From Raillietiella orientalis (lineage: Eukaryota), in assembly GCA_036172245.1 (NCBI GenBank), contig JAYWIR010000025.1, positions 1,426,001 to 1,490,000 on the forward strand: 64,000 bases of DNA. Reading direction: 5' to 3'. The position numbers and the translations under genes are program-made. The notes beneath the pieces were generated by a model that worked only from the letters and a program-made list of their open reading frames with translations, did no database searches and was not told where the DNA came from. Below, piece after piece: positions 12,631-58,600 of this stretch (the stretch's first letter is position 1; every line of letters begins with the position of its first letter).

Positions 12631-15600
12631 GACGCTTTCCTATGCAACATTTCTAAATTTCTAGATCTTTGGACGTGCTCCTTGCTTGCCATTTCCAGGA
12701 AGAAATATACGTGCCTCGTTATGATCGTTCATTCTTAAAAATTCTTGGACATCCACATATTCACCTAAATATCTCTTTTCTGGATCTGCAGAAGTGTCGA
12801 CTGTCAGTCGCGCTCTCTCACCAATGACAACGAGGATTTTTCACAGGTGCCGTACCCAGATATAGTGTTTCTCTTGGGAGCATGGGCTAATTGCTGCGAT
12901 GAAAACTTTTATTTCAGGAACGAAATTAGACGTTTCTGAAGCCACCGCGTCTTTTTGAAAAAGGTTGAAGAACACTTCTGTCGCACAAGTTTCATGAATC
13001 CTTCTGGTGCTCATGATGTCTCTAGGTTGAAGCGAACCGGCGTCTGGAATTTCGTCTCTCGCCCCTTCTTTGCAACCGAGGTCTCAACGATTCTATGGGG
13101 GCTCAAATGGTCGAAGACCTCTCTGATTTTTTTTTAAGCTGTCTTCGGACCGGCAGCATACTGACCTAACTTGGAATCTCTCGCGTTTTAGAGGTTACCA
13201 AGCAATCCCTGGACTCAGCAACATAAATACCAAATATCTAAATCCTCCGTTGAACCGCTGATTACGAATTGCGAAGGGAGTAAGTGAAGATGGCAGTTTT
13301 ATCTGAAGATAAAGTTTCACTTCCTGCTCTAGCTCATAGGAACATAAACAGGTTCGATGTTCCTTTGATTTACTGGAATCCATCGTGAATTCTATTCATC
13401 GCATTCCGCTTGAGACGGTTTCCTTCTAGAAAGGTGGACCATGGCAAAAAGGAAAAAAAAAAAAGTGTTTTCAAGGAACTTTCGCCACGCAACTTTGACA
13501 TCTCGATTCAAAAAGCGCAATGCAGGAGCAAGGTCTTCGCAACGTGGACCAGAGACCTCGTGGAAGATTAGCTGCACTAACATATTATATAACAGATGAT
13601 TCGGGAGATTTTATTTCATGTCTACTGTTGAAATTATTTTGCTACTAGTTATTTCTAGGAAGAAACACTTGAGAATAAAAAAAAATCCTTTGACGTTTCC
13701 TGTTATTTAGTGAAGTCAAGCCAAGTGGAAATAGTATCATGCATTTTATCTATATATTGTGATGCTGTAATTGCTCTTTCTTTAAGAATCTTTTCTGCAA
13801 TATTTCAAGAATTTGAGCGCTGCATTTCTATTCGATTTATTAATCTGTTTTTAAATTCATCTTCTACTCATCGTAAGAACAGGAAAACATCTTAGTTCTC
13901 CAGGTCTCAGTTAACAGAATCCACATGGAAGGTGCCGATGTTTATGCATCCATTATCATTGCCTGCACTGAAACCACTGCTATTTTCCCTTTGATCATTC
14001 TCAAGATAAAACATCCTCTAGATAATTCCCAGCATTCCCATCATGGAAAACTTTTCATTTCTTTTTTTCGAGCTGGTTATTGCTTTAAAAGCTTTCGGAA
14101 TAGTGTTTTCTTTTCAAAAAAAAATAAAAAATAAAACTGAATGAATGCTGTATTCTTTTCAACTGGACCCTTGGTCATCGTAGCAGAGCAGAGATAAGAA
14201 CTCGTATCTGCCTACCGCCCCTATGTCTGTCTTTGTCTTCTATTGAAAGACAAATTATTAAACTCTGAAACTGTAATAAATACTGCAGGAATTGATATTA
14301 ATGTCGTTATCAGATGCACATAAGGTCAAACAAAATATTCTTGCTTTTGGAGAAAAACTGGTTATGCACTATTGCAACACACGAAGGCCATCAAGATAGC
14401 AGATGTGTTAACCATAACGTTTTTTGAGGGCACATCATAGAGGCATTCTTCCCTCGAAATGCAAATCCACCAGGAAGAGATTAACGGTGCTGGTTTCTAT
14501 GTCTATTGGAATTTTGAGTATGGAAACTCCTGAACGAGAGGTCTCCAAGCCTCATCTTGTTCTGCTCCAAACGTCTTTTCAGTCAGGACCGTCACAAGTG
14601 GCACGAACAAAATTTCTGAAGATTCTGGTAGGCGAAAAGTCCCATTAAAGAATGAAGATCAACCCCACCAACCATTTTGGTTTTGCAGAGGAAGAGCGTT
14701 TTCGCTCATGGGTTCAGGGGGAAAACGAAATGCTCATTCATGCTAATTATGTGTCACTTTCACCTCTGTGTAGCGGTCAGTGCCTGAAAGACTCATGAAG
14801 ATGCACCACGTAGCTATGGTTTCACAAGAATAGGCCGCAGCGCATAAAGTATAGAAATTTTGAATTTCTGTCGAGGGAATATTTCACATTTAGCCAGTGC
14901 AGTTCATCTGTCAAGCTATTTGGTACGTCTACATTGGAGGATGTTTGGAATGACACTTGGCGGTCAATTTTTGAAGATAGCACATGGTTCTCACGGAATC
15001 GCTTCCTTTTCAGTTTGCTAAACGGATGATGGCAGTCATCTCGAGAGTGTTTTTTACTTTCGAGGCAGTGCTCAAGTGAGAAACTATGAGTTGACAACGG
15101 AATTATCATGTGTGGACTTTACATTCAGATGCGTGAGCTTAATGTCAACTGCAAGATTTTTTTTACTAACTAAATATTCGAATTCTCGTCAGGTATTTTG
15201 CGTTCACAAAGATTCCCTTTCTGTTTTGCAGTGAGGATATGGAGAAGCGAATCATTTCGGACATCATGGTCAGCCACGACCTTGAAAAGAGAAAACCATA
15301 CTCACGAATATCGATTACATTAATCTTGCGATGCCTTCCAATTTTGCCCTCGGAACTGTCTTTTAAGTTGCAGATATGTTTTATAGAATTCTCATGAATG
15401 TGCTTTTGGCATTCCTCCTTATTTGGGAAGTGTTTATCGAGATGCAATTGAAGCTTTCTCCTGAGTGCTTCCAAATAATGCTTCTCAGCAAGCATCCTTT
15501 CAGCTTTCCTTGCATTTTAGAATTTCGCTATTGGGCTTTTCAATCGGAAGTCTTCTTTGTTTGCAAAGTGCCCGTCTTTCAAGTCCAAAAAGGGTATGAC

Positions 15601-21274: not shown

Positions 21275-21419
21275 TCAGGATGCAGTCTATCTGATCAGAA
21301 GTTCAATAGACAATAAAATGTAAGAACGTGATCCCAGTTCGGCAAATAACCGGCCCGGAAGCAACGCACCAGGACATGTTGAAAGAGCACAAACCTCGTG
21401 CCTCGATCGAGGAACGCTG
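21275..21419 (+). repeat. Direct repeat copy 1 (about 145 bp; partner at 22128-22271)
   Basis: Aligns nearly colinearly with 22128-22271; shared blocks include GGCAAATAAC, GGCCCGGAAGCAACGCACCA and CCTCGTGCCTCGATCGAGG. Identity is roughly 80% by eye. Confidence 0.85.
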
Positions 21420-22127: not shown

Positions 22128-22271
22128 TCAGAATGCAGCCGACCGGATCGGAAGTTTAATAAACAACGAAATGTGAGAAGGTGACCCGAGTTTGGCAAAT
22201 AACTGGCCCGGAAGCAACGCACCAAGGCGTGTTGAAGAGCACCATCCTCGTGCCTCGATCGAGGGACGCTG
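22128..22271 (+). repeat. Direct repeat copy 2 (about 144 bp; partner at 21275-21419)
   Basis: Same alignment as copy 1; the similarity also shows in track ORFs 21328..21540 and 22181..22366 (QITGPEATHQ). Confidence 0.85.
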
Positions 22272-22551
22272 CAGTCGGAAGTTTAACCTCTCCACGTCAT
22301 TGCGCACTGGAACCACATGGCACATGGTCATGCAGACGTTTGACATGTGGGATGATGTCACAGTGATCGGAAGATCCGAGTGAAGGTAGTGAAATGAAGG
22401 TCAGGCAAAAAAGGTCAGAAACACTGGAGTGGAAGTGACGTTTGCTATAGGAGTGATCAGATGAAAAGATTCCTGTCGTCAAGGGAGAGTTTTACGGGTG
22501 GATTTTTCAGCCTTTTTTTTTTTTTGGAGGAAATTCCAGGACATTCCGCTA

Positions 22552-22636
22552 TAACTCGTGGCTTTCCTAATTTCGTGATGAAGAGAGTCAAATTAACTCT
22601 CTTCATCATGAAATTTTGAAAGCCAGAGTTAATTTG
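22552..22636. repeat. Imperfect hairpin / nested inverted repeat (about 80 bp)
   Basis: TAACTCgTGGCTTTCctAATTTCGTGATGAAGAGAGT pairs with ACTCTCTTCATCATGAAATTttGAAAGCCAGAGTTA around a short loop. Confidence 0.8.
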
Positions 22637-23049
22637 AAACTTTTGTTTTCAAATCTTGATTAAATGCCTCCGTCAGCAGAATTTCGTCGAGAAATCCGGT
22701 TATTCGCTAGAAAAAAAAAAAAAAAAAACATCCCGGTTTCCAACCTAGATATGCTGGAATTTTCCATCACCTTTGAAGTTTCTGGAAATGCATCCGACTT
22801 TTCATCTTATCCTCATTGAAGATTCAAAATCTGCAGCTGTGGTTGCTTTTGAACCTTAAAACTAATTCTGTACACCAAAGAACTAGAATGCGCATGAAGC
22901 TGCTGAATTATGCTCTTCCTCCAGTCCTACCTAAACAGGTTTTCCCCAGAAAATCCAATATTCTTCTTCAGCAAGCTTAGTACTTACCAATTGCCTAACA
23001 TTATAGGGTTACTGAACTTCCAGTCGCTCATAGCATGAGAGATTCAGAA

Positions 23050-23867
23050 CTTGGGATTGGCTGAACCATGCTCGCAGGCTGTTGGCCTTGGAGCCCTCCT
23101 CTGTATCAGACCTCCAGGATCTCACTGGAGTGTTTGCTGCTACCACTAAGATGGGCTCCGCCGGCGGCCCCGGGCGAGCTCGGGCCAAAACCCTTCTGCG
23201 CGCACCGTCACTACCATCCCACTCATCGGAACCCGGCCGCCTGGAACTTTTCTTCCTGGAGTCCTCCGGCGGCGCAACGCCGGAAGACAAGAATGGCTCT
23301 GTCCCGGCGGCTGGGGACAGACTCGACGCTCGCGAGCCATCCATCTTCAGGGCCGGTTGCTTCGGCAGGTAAGTCGTTACACACTCCTTAGCGGATTCCG
23401 ATTTCCATGGCGCAACCATCCTGCTGCCAACACGTTTCGCATCGGGCGCCGCATCCCCCGGCGTATGGCTCATCCCACGGCTCCAGTTCCGCTTACCGAA
23501 GTTGACGCATCAGGAGCTCAGGGATCCTAGCTGCAGGCAAGCCGGACTTTTCATCCATTTCATCCATAGGTAGAGGTCATTTCGTCTCGAAAGCCCCTGA
23601 TCATTGCCTTTACCGGATGAGACCCACCTCCTTGCTTCCGCTCCAACGAGCGCCATGTACCCTGAGGCCAACTTTGGAGGGAGCCAGCTACTGTTAGGCG
23701 GTTCGATTCGTCTTTGGCTCCTGCCACCGACTCCTATGACCAGTTTGCAAGGGTTGGGATAGGATCCGTCAGCATCGCTGCTCATCCTCTCCACCAAGGT
23801 TCCCCCCCCCTCCCTTTGGCTTTGTTTGACCAGGCATAGGCCACCACCGCCTTCCTGGTCCCAGCGC
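23050..23867 (-). pseudogene. Isolated, highly diverged 28S (LSU) rRNA fragment (domain II and adjacent region, including the GTPase-associated centre)
   Basis: The minus strand contains colinear conserved LSU blocks: CTATGCCTGGTC, AAAGACGAATCGAACC...AGTAGCTGG, GTCTCATCCGGTAAAG, GGTAAGCGGAACTGG, GCCATGGAAATCGGAATCCGCTAAGGAGTGTGTAACGACTTACCTGCCGAAGCAAC...CCCTGAAGATGGATGG, ATCTTAGTGGTAGCAGCAAA. It has many indels and no flanking 18S, 5.8S or remaining 28S sequence. Confidence 0.92.
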
Positions 23868-24053
23868 GAAATTTGGCTGTATGGCTGTAAAGATGCTGCG
23901 ATCGCCGTATTCCTCTGAATACAGGAATATCCTTTGAAAGCTGCGAAACTGAAGATTCGCTTTCCTTTGTTCAACTGCTTTCCTGCTTCATTCGCGGATT
24001 GTGGCGGAAATTGTGACCCACGCTGCCATGAGTTGATAGGAAAGCAAGAACAG

Positions 24054-49700: not shown

Positions 49701-49964
49701 CTAGAATGACAAAAGTTTAAAGGGGGTAGCTGCAATTTGAAATCATTTTCAAGATTGAAAGAATATCAAATCACGTGATATACAGATGCAAAGAATGGCA
49801 AATAAATCTCTCAAATATTTTTGAGACTACTTGTGAAGTAGCAAAAACTTGGTGGAGCACATGGCAAGGGATTTTTCTTTCATTTTATTAATCCTTTGAT
49901 GTCTGTGATGACTATGAGTGATTAAGAAAAACAAAAAAAAAGGGCAGAAAAGATGTGAAAATGG

Positions 49965-50665
49965 AAACTTCGGAGAGAAGTGGAGCTTAAGCCATACACA
50001 GTGTATCTGCTGGACTAATTCCACCGATGGTAAGAGTTTTTTCTCTTCTTGAGTATGGAGTCTGTCTGTCAAGTTCTGTATGGATGTGGGCAAATAAAAT
50101 TCAGGACAGAAAATAAGACTCCACAAACACTTAGAACGTTTCAGTATTTGAGATTTTGGGTAGTCATGTACATTTTTAGACAGTATATTCAAAATGTTCA
50201 TTTACTGCATTTGAAAGAACAGATGCATCTATTGGCACAGCAACATCCCTAAATAAGAACCAGAAATTTCGAGATGTAGAATGACACGGAACCCTAATAG
50301 CATTTCTAGAGATTCAGAATGCATTTTCATGTCTTGTCTGACATCTATGAAACATAGATCGAACAAATCCGAACGGAAAAACTTTGTTGCTTTGCCAATA
50401 GATGCCTCTGTTCTTTCAAATGCAGTAAATGAACATTTTGAATATACTGTCTAAAAATGTACATGACTACCCAAAATCTCAAATACTGAAACGTTCTAAG
50501 TGTTTGTGGAGTCTTATTTTCTGTCCTGAATTTTATTTGCCCACATCCATACAGGACTTGACAGACAGACTCCATACTCAAGAAGAGAAAAAAATCTTAC
50601 CATCGGTGGAATTAGTCCAGCAGATACACTGTGTATGGCTTAAGCTCCACTTCTCTCCGAAGTTT
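49965..50665. repeat. Long inverted repeat: arms 49965-50245 and 50385-50665 (281 bp each), 139-bp spacer
   Basis: The arms are reverse complements, with 4 mismatches found by eye. Mirrored ORFs in the track confirm this (49827..50201- vs 50429..50716+; 50049..50252+ vs 50345..50581-). Confidence 0.95.
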
Positions 50666-54682: not shown

Positions 54683-55622
54683 CTAAATTACAAAATTTGC
54701 AGATCTGATTTTCTGAATCACACAAACCTTCTTAAAGTGGACAAATGTGGGTACAGGGCTAAGCAAGCAGAAGGAAACAGTTGTTTCATGTTACGGAAGA
54801 CAGAGACCCAGTTTCCCTGTCTGTTCGCCAAGCTTATCTTGAAAGAAGTTTGCAAATGAGGATGACATCGCAAATATTTGGGAAATTGAAGTACAGAATT
54901 CAAGGAAAACTCAAAATTTAAATGATGCAAAAGGAACAAGGAGACAACTTTGGCATTCAATGTAGATTCTACATCCATAAGCACCATTAACCGATCTAAG
55001 CATTCTTGTAGGTGCACAGTATTTAAGTGGTCATCATAATATTGACTGGTTGTGTTGCCAAACCTGGGAACCAATTTAGCAGTTGATTGTACAGACACTT
55101 GGATCTCACTTGTATTGAGAAAATAAATAGAATAAGGTTGCTCCAAGAAGAATCTTGCTGGCAACTTCTCCTTGCAAGTTCTGCATTACCAAATCCTTGC
55201 GAACTGCACGAATCCGGTCAAATAAAAAATCATAAATCAAATCATAAGACACATCTGGATTCTGCATAACTCTGAAATGATGATAAGGCAAACACTGTGC
55301 CTCATATACTTGCCTACCCAGCAAATACTGCATGCATTTGAAAAGAACCTCTGCTGGTCTGATCTCAGATGGATCTGATAAATCTTGACCTGCAGAAGAT
55401 CTCTTGTACTCTTTCACAACTTTATTTGGATCAGCTTCATAATGTGCTCCTTCTTTTCTCTCCAAAACATGAAGCATCCTGTGTGTCTCTCTCCTAAAAA
55501 CTGAACTTATTAACAAATAACACAACAGCAACCATTTACCAACACATTTCCTTTGTGGAACACATCTGCATGCAAGTTCCCTTGACAAAGGATGAATTGG
55601 AAGTTCTGCATTTATATGCCAT
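54391..55622 (-). CDS. SAC3D1: SAC3 domain-containing protein (SAC3/GANP family, SAC3D1-like), 5 coding exons, about 350 aa
   Basis: Manual splicing gives exons 55622-55540, 55493-55314, 55271-55110, 55063-54728 and 54682-54391, totalling 1053 nt with one open frame. The product contains SAC3/GANP motifs: VKGTCMQMCSTKE, RETHRMLHVLE, VVKEYKRSSAG, EIRPAEVLFKCMQYLL, YDFLFDRIRAVRKDLVMQ, HLNTVHLQECL, GNWVSVFR, VLSSAYSS. The short length and lack of an N-terminal extension favour SAC3D1 over MCM3AP/GANP. The start ATG at 55622 is tentative because an upstream exon is possible. Confidence 0.88.
54728..55063 (-). CDS. SAC3D1: SAC3D1-like exon 4
   Basis: FGNTTSQYYDDHLNTVHLQECLDRL...GNWVSVFRNMKQL...HLSTLR, in track ORF 54718..55164. 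Acceptor TTCCCAG at 55064 and donor GTTTGT at 54727. Confidence 0.85.
55110..55271 (-). CDS. SAC3D1: SAC3D1-like exon 3
   Basis: VMQNPDVSYDLIYDFLFDRIRAVRKDLVMQ...FYLFSQY. Acceptor TTTCAG at 55272 and donor GTGAGA at 55109. Confidence 0.88.
55314..55493 (-). CDS. SAC3D1: SAC3D1-like exon 2
   Basis: RETHRMLHVLE...KEYKRSSAG...IRPAEVLFKCMQYLLG, part of track ORF 55106..55588. Ends at a putative AG|GCAAGT donor. Confidence 0.85.
55540..55622 (-). CDS. SAC3D1: SAC3D1-like exon 1 (MAYKCRTSNSSFVKGTCMQMCSTKEMC)
   Basis: Encodes the GTCxxMC..E motif in a frame not shown in the ORF track. Followed by donor GTAAAT at 55539 and a 46-nt intron ending TTTTTAG at 55494. Confidence 0.75.
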
Positions 55623-58600
55623 TAAGCATTGCTTCAATACAATTACTCCATGGAAAAGGATGACTTTGGATAAGTAATAATGATTTTTACTTTTTTACGA
55701 TGATTTTTAATCCATGAAAGCATTTATCTGAATTGAATGAGACAAAACGATTATGAAAAAAACGGGGGGTTTTGGACATTGAACAAATATTTCCTACTTC
55801 ATTTGTTTGACACTATTTGAAAACTCTTGATTTAACTTTGAATACATTTCAGACAACATAAGATGAGAACGTCTCTTGGATAATGAAGCATTCAAACTCC
55901 ATTACCTTAAATTTGCTAACAAGACGAGGAATCTTACCGGTATTTTAACCCACCAGAGTATCTACAATTTAAATTTTGCAAAAGTGGCTGAATCCAAATG
56001 CTAAAATTCTAGAATGCATCACCACATGCATTCAATGATCAGTCAGCAAACAAATACTTTGCGACAAAAACCCGTTCATTATAGTATGGCATGCAAATGA
56101 ATTCACGCAACTGAATAAAAACAAAATGTTTACCATAAAAAACTCTGGTGGATTGGAAAATGCTATAAACTGTTTTTCAAATATGGAAACCAGGCATTTG
56201 CGTGCACGAGAGCTTGCAACATATGTTCAGCATTCCTTTTTTTTAAAAAAAAAATTTTGGCAGACAATTCCTGGTCTACTCGAATTTCCGGTTTCTAAAA
56301 CCGTTAAATTCACAACTTGAAAGTGGAGTTTGCAGAGAGGGAAGTTGATGGACATAGGATAACGGTGCCCGCCATGCTGAGGTGCCCGCCATGTTGTGTT
56401 CCAAGAGGAGGCTCAAGTGAGCCTCCTCTTGGAACACCAGTGCCCTAGAAAAATAGGGAACACCTATTCAAGAAGGGCTTTGCTTTATGAGGACATGATC
56501 CATGGCCCATACTTCACAAAACACTCATCTGGAGAAGAATCACAAACAGCGTCAGAAAGTTATCCTCAGGAAGTGATACAAGGTCTTCGTTGAAGTCAAG
56601 GGATGACATCCGTAGGATGGACTTTCACCGTCAGCAACATCTGTGGAGCTCTAAACCTAAGAAATCTGGAAGTAGAAACGCCCATCTCGTACATCGTCGT
56701 TTTGTCAGATCCAATTGAGATCAGACTTCAAAGACTAAGAAAACTTTTGTTTATACACACGGTCCCATGGAAATGAAAAGTTATTTATGCAAGCATCCAT
56801 CCATGCCGAATGAAAAGTTTCATTCTTAGGAAGCACTTTTGACGCTTCATTCTTAGTGGACCAAGCATTCAGGTAGTGTTGAGCTTTAGAATCTGGTTTG
56901 AATACTCAAACCATCTTTTGTTTTCATGATGGGAAGGCTCTGGTCAACTTTTCCATCTCATCTTGCACCGAGCAGCTCCAGCTTCTTCTTGCCAAGTCTT
57001 CAGACCACTAAAGGAATTTATAAAAGGCTCGTAGTGCTTTTTCTTCTTTTTTTTGTTTACATGAGGTCTTAGTGGGAGGTGAGGTCTTTGAAAGTCTTCG
57101 AAACCTTTTGGTTGTGACTGCTAACGTGCAATGAATTCAGCCACCATGGGTGAATCAAATTTGATCTTGGTTTGCTTTAAGAACTTCATGTATTTGTGGA
57201 TGCGTGGTTTATGTGGATATCATACCTTAAGTAACCGTTAGCCCATTTGCAAGTGCAACAGTAATTTCACACTGAAATTGCAATACATTATCGAACCTCC
57301 TGGTCAACGATTCTATTTGTAGCACCTTGGAAGCGGTCTTGATTGCATCTATCTTTGGGTGACGGACTCTTTATTTATTGCATGATCATGATTGATGGAA
57401 TCACTAAATATGCTTTATGTCTAGTTGAAAGTGTTTCATGGTTTTTCCTAAAGAACGAAGATGGATTACTTAAAGATTAATTATCAAAAATGTTTTGTAA
57501 TGCTGCTAATCATCATAGGTCAGAAGTCCTATCACGAATCATCTATTACCACAGCAAAGAATAAAGTGGTCCTTCGAGATTACCTTCATGGGACTCCATT
57601 TTCGAAGGTTACATTTTTGCAGTTCATGTATTCATTCGGTTTATACATTCTTTTCATGTATTCAGTTTTCAACGGTGTTTCTAATGCAAGGCAGGCTCTC
57701 GTAGTTGGAATCTATGACTTGTCTGCTGCTTCCAAATTTGTTTATTAGATACAGACATCATAGAGCAGTTGTGAAATAAAACTGTTTGTGGGGAGGAAAG
57801 AAGGCGTAGCAAATTCTGGAAAGACTGAATGTTCAGAAATGACATCAGAGGGAGAAAAACAAATAGGAATCTGATTTGGAAGGCATCTTCCTTGCCTTCA
57901 AAAACTAGGGACTTTTTGCTGTTGTGTGCCAGTTAGTAAAAAATGTGGATCAGTCTAAAAATCCTCTCAACTTTGAAGAACGTAACGAACGAATGTAGTT
58001 GTTCGAGACGGAAACTTCAGGGTCGGTACCATAAATGTGAGTGTACTGTTCAACCATGTAAACATTGCAAAAACGGAAAACAACTCTACAGTAACGTTAC
58101 GTTTCGTGCGTACCTATGAAAATTTAAATGAGAACTTGAAGGATCCTGACTCTTGGATTTCTGGTTGAGAGATAGCAAATTTTGTACACACTTGAGATCT
58201 CCTGCAGAAATAGTATTTCAACAAAAAAAGAAAATTCAGATCTCACCTCAAACTTCACCTTCTCAAAAACAGCTGAAAACTTTGGATATTATCATGTATC
58301 CAATATTATACTTATTAATTTTCATTATACTTATATTAATTAGAGTTCCGTTTCCTTATGTGCAAAAATCATTAACTTCCAGGATCTGTTTTTTTGATGA
58401 AAGAGTGTGGTTGACTGCATATAGAAGGATTGTAACAGCAGTACTCTTGTGCATTCGAAGGGAAAACGGAAACGTAACACCTTTACTAAAATAGTCAAAG
58501 AAAATGGATGCAGAGTGCAATTCTAGAGAAAATATTGTCGTCTTCTCAAGATTACACTTGAAAAATTTATTGTACATGAATTTAATTATTTCATGTATTT

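Follow-up and report, generated by a model that had tools for sequence, protein, structure and literature searches.

The window analysed here, by which we mean the whole 64-kb stretch of DNA, was scanned against Rfam, and the eukaryotic large-subunit (LSU) rRNA model RF02543 (LSU_rRNA_eukarya) matched its minus strand at 23070-23991 (207.2 bits, E 3.5e-52, model positions 665-1888). The match passes the gathering score of 50, identifying the sequence as a homolog of eukaryotic LSU rRNA, and was the sole match above gathering score in the window. A separate Rfam scan of 22900-23440 scored the 3' part of the fragment at 156.5 bits against the same model and traced homology down as far as position 22975 or so, which corresponds to about 1625 in the model. 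Credible homology runs over about 22975-23875, from domain II helices through domain III, and is somewhat longer than the interval 23050-23867 first assigned to the fragment. It covers about positions 800-1625 of the 3401 in the model, and its extent is given here together with that of the uncertain sequence next to it:

22975-23875, minus strand: LSU (28S-type) rRNA-derived core, truncated at both ends (RF02543 about 800-1625, BLAST to natural rDNA loci, alignments)
23876-23991, minus strand: doubtful 5' extension (RF02543 model positions 665-800, low posterior probability)

In alignments with natural sequences, 23876-23991 showed no convincing resemblance to natural rRNAs. A cmscan search at E values up to 1 found no further rDNA-like stretch in the 64-kb window, and when the whole window was compared by BLAST with 90 rDNA loci, 23325-23722 was the only stretch that matched. 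The preliminary description had called this a lone, strongly decayed LSU fragment, and the single Rfam match in a window that holds no other rDNA bears this out: within the 64 kb, the fragment is rDNA-derived sequence lying outside a tandem array, as an orphon does. It has a G+C content of 58-60%, compared with 37-47% around it (42-44% in the flanks), and the flanks are unique, non-coding DNA. The observed/expected ratio of CpG was similar inside (0.78-0.84) and outside (0.75-0.89) the fragment; ratios of 0.75-0.89 argue against a heavily CpG-methylated, vertebrate-type genome.

Several other features were observed in the window. About 250 bp from the 3' end of the fragment lies a foldback, MITE-like element (22500-22733) whose terminal inverted repeats end in T13 and A19. 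Its inner palindrome (22559-22625, with 33-nt arms) gave weak, sub-threshold matches to several miRNA-precursor families on both strands. Upstream of the fragment there is a local direct duplication of 145 bp with 84% identity (21275-21419 and 22128-22271). Pfam assigned two ORFs on the minus strand at 54721-55621 to SAC3/GANP (E 6.4e-27 and 2e-09); a PDB sequence search gave SAC3D1 and GANP as their nearest, though distant, solved relatives (E about 1e-09), and a protein atlas returned only family-level matches from mixed taxa for this exon. No word-sharing relative of these ORFs was found among the longer proteins of a large protein collection, which suggests that the host belongs to a poorly sampled lineage. 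Three weak, sub-threshold Pfam matches may each mark an exon: RNA polymerase Rpb1 domain 1 at 15169-15516 (minus strand, E 0.0014), a TMC domain at 49830-50201 (minus strand, E 0.008), and a telomerase RNA-binding domain at 58150-58491 (plus strand, E 0.005). The last of these, a TERT-like ORF, had no sequence match in the PDB.

Direct reading of the sequence confirmed that all of the motifs and indels named in the preliminary description exist, with coordinates accurate to within 1 base. Within the fragment they are arranged as follows:

23847-23852, minus strand: 5' strand of a long-range helix, AGGCGG (ccgcct on the plus strand), compensated relative to AGATGG/CCATCT
23696-23701, minus strand: 3' strand of the long-range helix, CCGCCT (aggcgg on the plus strand), followed by a 3-nt insertion and then GTAGCTGG
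23487-23501, minus strand: hairpin CTTCGGTAAGCGGAA, read as the reverse complement (the start given earlier, 23486, was one base off)
23794-23819, minus strand: hairpin CCAAAGG...CCTTGG, with CCAAAGG at 23813-23819 and CCTTGG at 23794-23799 (reverse complements)
23550-23567, minus strand: 9-nt tandem duplication, ttcatccat on the plus strand at 23550-23558 and again at 23559-23567
23420-23433, minus strand: 10-position deletion directly 5' of CAGCAGG, with its junction at 23426/23427 (Rfam and MAFFT alignments)
23232-23295, minus strand: G+C-rich expansion-segment insert of 59 nt, at a site where the Rfam consensus has none

The helices mix intact and damaged pairing. In the AGGCGG/CCGCCT helix, two neighbouring pairs are both compensated relative to AGATGG/CCATCT. 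In the hairpin CTTCGGTAAGCGGAA a single pair, 23498/23490, is compensated (C-G in place of U-A), and 3 of the 10 pairs carry the Rfam mark for non-standard pairing. The CCAAAGG/CCTTGG hairpin combines one compensated pair (G-C to A-U) with one A.C mismatch or bulged A, and a run of nine Gs (C9 at 23802-23810 on the plus strand) has expanded its tetraloop to 13 nt; the Rfam alignment places 13 bases in this loop where the model has 3. The tandem duplication adjoins a 6-position deletion in a conserved single-stranded stretch, and the deletion 5' of CAGCAGG leaves five base pairs half-deleted, as read from the NC and CS lines of the Rfam alignment. At the expansion-segment site, three of the natural sequences described below (L078, L082 and L083) have variable inserts of other sequence.

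Natural sequences for comparison came from two scans. A scan of metagenomes for CCGCCT, set in the conserved sequence around it, yielded 76 contigs, eight of which were scanned with Rfam and proved to be complete or partial eukaryotic rDNA operons. Of the 76, those reaching 200 nt or more 5' and 600 nt or more 3' of the motif gave 61 unique sequences, which we aligned with the fragment; having been chosen by CCGCCT, this panel of 61 says nothing on the frequency of that variant among eukaryotes. An RNAalifold consensus of the alignment contained 238 pairs; 187 of them were standard in no fewer than 90% of the panel sequences. Searching prokaryote assemblies for the GCCGAAGCAAC context yielded 13 eukaryotic rDNA contigs (L078-L090), short LSU contigs that contaminate thirteen assemblies or MAGs filed as bacteria. 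Twelve of these 13 served as the nearest group. The other, L081, was left out, as it has 13 nt 5' of the motif and 44% standard pairs; those 13 nt of 5' context are joined to a 49.7-kb contig that may be chimeric. The BLAST set of 90 loci comprised the 76 metagenome loci, the 13 genome-contig loci and one viral-contig locus (L001; universal LSU motif), which does not contain the fragment's region and was excluded from counts.

In a tree, the fragment fell into a clade with L078, L080, L082, L083 and L084 (support 0.90), to which it is 70-74% identical. These five eukaryotic rDNA contaminants of bacterial assemblies have GCCGAAGCAAC in common with the fragment but, unlike it, carry the AGATGG/CCATCT and TTTTGGTAAGCAGAA forms and keep 96-100% standard pairs. 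All 12 of the nearest natural sequences have AGATGG/CCATCT and TTTTGGTAAGCAGAA and are without the fragment's variants, so the source lineage is absent among those 12. None of the 90 loci, whether from metagenomes, genome contigs or the viral contig, was a close relative of the fragment, the best identity being 74%. The GCCGAAGCAAC group, to which the source gene was probably related, is itself probably arthropod-like, as is the host animal. Some motifs of the fragment had been likened to pancrustacean 28S; the likeness holds in that two of the nearest relatives, L082 and L084, additionally have GCCTGGTC and GTCTCATCCGG in common with the fragment, but a pancrustacean identity is only compatible with the data. 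One contig with the GCCGAAGCAAC context belongs to an assembly that bears the name of Candidatus Erwinia dacicola, an olive-fly symbiont; this rDNA contig is probably insect.

Judged from its sequence, the fragment is non-functional today, a dead copy. It retains homology to functional LSU rRNA in both sequence and secondary structure over model positions of about 800-1625, but in contrast to a functional gene it is partial, and neither its conserved positions nor its helices are intact. Its bit density against RF02543 was 0.22 bits per base, about a quarter of the natural value (0.76-0.83 in the natural operons L009, L060 and L062). At the 103 columns that are invariant in the 61 natural rRNAs, the fragment had 17 substitutions (16.5%) and 2 gaps. 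When each natural rRNA was left out in turn and put through the same test, 50 of the 61 had no substitution and 60 had two or fewer (1.9% or less). The terminal branch of the fragment measured 0.44-0.49 substitutions per site, compared with a median of 0.038.

Base pairing told the same story. Among the 187 supported pairs, the fragment kept the commonest pair at 95, a standard pair reached by one change at 23 and a standard pair reached by two changes at 13; 31 pairs were broken and 25 gapped. Standard pairs made up 81% of its 162 complete pairs, compared with a panel median of 98.9%. MAFFT misaligns the hairpin with the G run, which makes the broken count from our own structure (31/162) a few too high; a second count, taken from the non-standard marks in the Rfam alignment, gave 46 of 212 fragment pairs as non-standard or half-deleted. 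The two estimates concur that about one pair in five is broken. Separately, the metagenome contig L026 was an outlier within the panel: where the other 60 sequences are invariant it had 12 substitutions and 3 gaps, only 81% of its pairs were standard, and its branch was long (0.40). L026, which was retained in the panel although apparently decayed, could be a further rDNA copy in decay or the product of poor assembly.

Some of the fragment's differences nevertheless come in complementary pairs, as the preliminary description had claimed. Relative to the consensus of the 12 nearest sequences, 99 pairs were unchanged, 23 had a one-sided change that left them standard, 9 had a two-sided change that left them standard, and 31 were broken; measured against the wider panel, the number of two-sided compensated pairs was 13. 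Four of the nine (23847/23698, 23498/23490, 23091/23066 and 23089/23068) fall at pairs that are invariant or nearly so in the nearest group: 23847/23698 is GC in the fragment and AT in 10/10 group sequences, and 23498/23490 is TA in 58 of the 61 panel sequences and in all 12 of the nearest group. The other five two-sided changes are those at 23456/23314, 23448/23322, 23306/23227, 23305/23228 and 23209/23160. Simulated random decay of the group consensus (model A) produced only 1.7-4.8 two-sided changes, and at the divergence that fits the fragment (d 0.18-0.22) the probability of nine or more was 0.001-0.013. The excess of helix-preserving changes over random decay is thus real, and the shortfall under model A implies that the fragment's compensated changes arose under structural constraint, before decay set in.

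What did not hold up was the use of this covariation as a sign of an unusual history. Each compared with the others, natural members of the nearest group have 4-23 two-sided changes, and members of the wider panel have 8-65 (median 33), compared with 13 in the fragment, so that natural lineages equal or exceed it. When natural sequences, rather than a group consensus, were subjected to random decay at d 0.15-0.18 (model B), the simulated numbers of same, one-change, two-change and broken pairs (98-105, 17-19, 10.5-10.8 and 29-34) came close to the observed 99, 23, 9 and 31. Covariation in the fragment is therefore no higher than in simulated decay of ordinary rRNA. The AGGCGG/CCGCCT form of the long-range helix itself occurs in natural rRNAs: in the panel, which was selected for CCGCCT, 28 of 61 rRNAs pair it with AGGCGG, and in a further 31 the partner strand is AGGTGG, the G.U intermediate. 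This shows that the variant is natural and recurs across the tree, although its frequency is not given by a panel selected in this way. Moreover, group-invariant sites had changed at equal rates whether paired (58/274) or unpaired (46/199; p 0.65), indicating that most of the divergence arose free of structural constraint; together with model B, these rates describe a sequence that diverged without regard to rRNA structure or function, as expected of an orphon.

The divergence had also been described as running towards higher G+C, and here the observation proved correct. At the 473 columns invariant in the nearest group, W-to-S changes occurred at 53 of 228 positions and S-to-W changes at 32 of 245 (p 0.004), and eight of the nine two-sided changes turned an A-U pair into G-C. 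At the strictest invariant columns the bias was gone (9/66 versus 5/37). Natural lineages also drift in composition, as shown by 3 versus 10 such changes in L078 and 37 versus 7 in L086, with 0-10% of such columns altered compared with 22% in the fragment. The W-to-S excess is not what plain neutral decay predicts in surroundings of 42-44% G+C: it needs either a G+C-rich source lineage, which is the simple explanation, or biased gene conversion during a multicopy phase.

The most far-reaching reading would see in the fragment the final remnant of a G+C-rich rDNA lineage of its own, be it a second paralogous class or foreign rDNA acquired long ago. If true, this would mean long concerted evolution with G+C-biased conversion, a history that would explain why W-to-S changes are in excess and why the fragment has A-U to G-C compensations absent in the 12 nearest sequences; we regard it as unlikely. 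Had the fragment come from a second, divergent class of rDNA, or from a 28S-derived multicopy family, it would have passed through concerted evolution and G+C-biased conversion before it was orphaned, and the G+C-ward bias at group-invariant columns, the direction of the double changes and the G+C-rich island that it forms amid poorer flanks all fit such a past. However, the window contains no second copy, the fragment has no close relative in any of the three sets of loci, natural lineages shift directionally in composition as well, and the bias fails to appear at the strictest invariant columns; this reading strikes us as quite improbable. Integration of rDNA from a foreign eukaryote (parasite, symbiont or prey), with decay afterwards, is a highly improbable origin. 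Such an origin would sit well with a source that is not tied to the host and with a G+C content distinct from that of the flanks, but nothing in the data requires it. Genes for rRNA are commonly richer in G+C than the genome around them, and the CpG ratio is alike in the fragment and outside it. Decayed, dispersed rDNA derived from a genome's own copies is, moreover, documented in humans (PMC5381670).

It is also very unlikely that the fragment is a recent copy of an extremely long-branched host 28S, with most of its differences present in the working gene. This simpler option had been offered alongside the exotic ones in the preliminary description, and it gains from the SAC3 exon without a word-sharing relative among longer proteins, according to which the host is apparently poorly sampled. 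A working gene, however, would have to tolerate the 16.5% of invariant positions that are substituted here, when 60 of the 61 natural rRNAs, the long-branch L073 included, stay at or below 1.9%; it would also have to function with about one pair in five broken, with core-helix deletions and with a tandem duplication. As for the account first proposed, the decayed lone fragment with compensated changes that predate the decay stands, and the exotic forms of it are unsupported, for an ordinary source followed by 15-18% decay suffices. Given that a natural source with this amount of neutral decay reproduces every count, neither a second rDNA class nor a foreign donor is needed.

We therefore consider it very probable that the fragment is an ordinary old rDNA pseudogene, or orphon: an internal piece, about 900 nt long, of a nuclear 28S-type gene, derived from an ordinary source and subsequently subject to neutral decay. 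The source would have been an ordinary functional LSU rRNA gene from a lineage fairly rich in G+C; the host's own 28S is the simplest candidate, on an assumption of parsimony. This gene would already have had its lineage's compensated helix variants, AGGCGG/CCGCCT included. A piece of it would then have moved from the rDNA array into unique, non-coding DNA, where the displaced copy would have gained about 15-20% substitutions regardless of structure, along with the indels that decay would also have brought: the expansion of the G run, the 9-nt duplication and several deletions in core helices.

The piece may have been displaced by capture at the DNA level, by unequal exchange or by retro-copying. 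Of the marks of an rRNA-derived retrocopy or SINE, neither a poly(A) tail nor a target-site duplication was seen: on the rRNA strand there was no A-run after the 3' end, and no flanking direct repeat of at least 11 nt bracketed the fragment, although both ends are blurred by decay, which could have erased such marks if they are old. Pfam detected no reverse-transcriptase family in the 93 of 177 ORFs (at least 85 aa) that were scanned. We also considered a piece of 28S carried by an R1/R2-type, rDNA-specific retrotransposon and rejected it, as no reverse-transcriptase ORF adjoins the fragment among the scanned ORFs. The end of the fragment near model position 1625 lies well 5' of the region that R1 and R2 target.

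Dispersed and highly degraded rDNA of a genome's own origin has been documented in humans (Robicheau et al., 2017, PMC5381670). The human orphons and the fragment are alike in lying off the array, in being truncated and strongly diverged, and in heading towards random sequence. The fragment is unlike the human orphons described there in that it belongs to a non-vertebrate-like genome (CpG observed/expected about 0.8) and in that it derives from within the 28S only, without remains of spacer, 18S or 5.8S.

Displaced and decaying pieces of rDNA are a known by-product of the turnover of rDNA arrays, and as one of them the fragment is of little consequence in itself. Since all functional lineages show compensated differences from a textbook consensus, such differences do not single out an rRNA with an unusual past; decay is better gauged by how far universally invariant positions have changed and by what proportion of pairs is broken.
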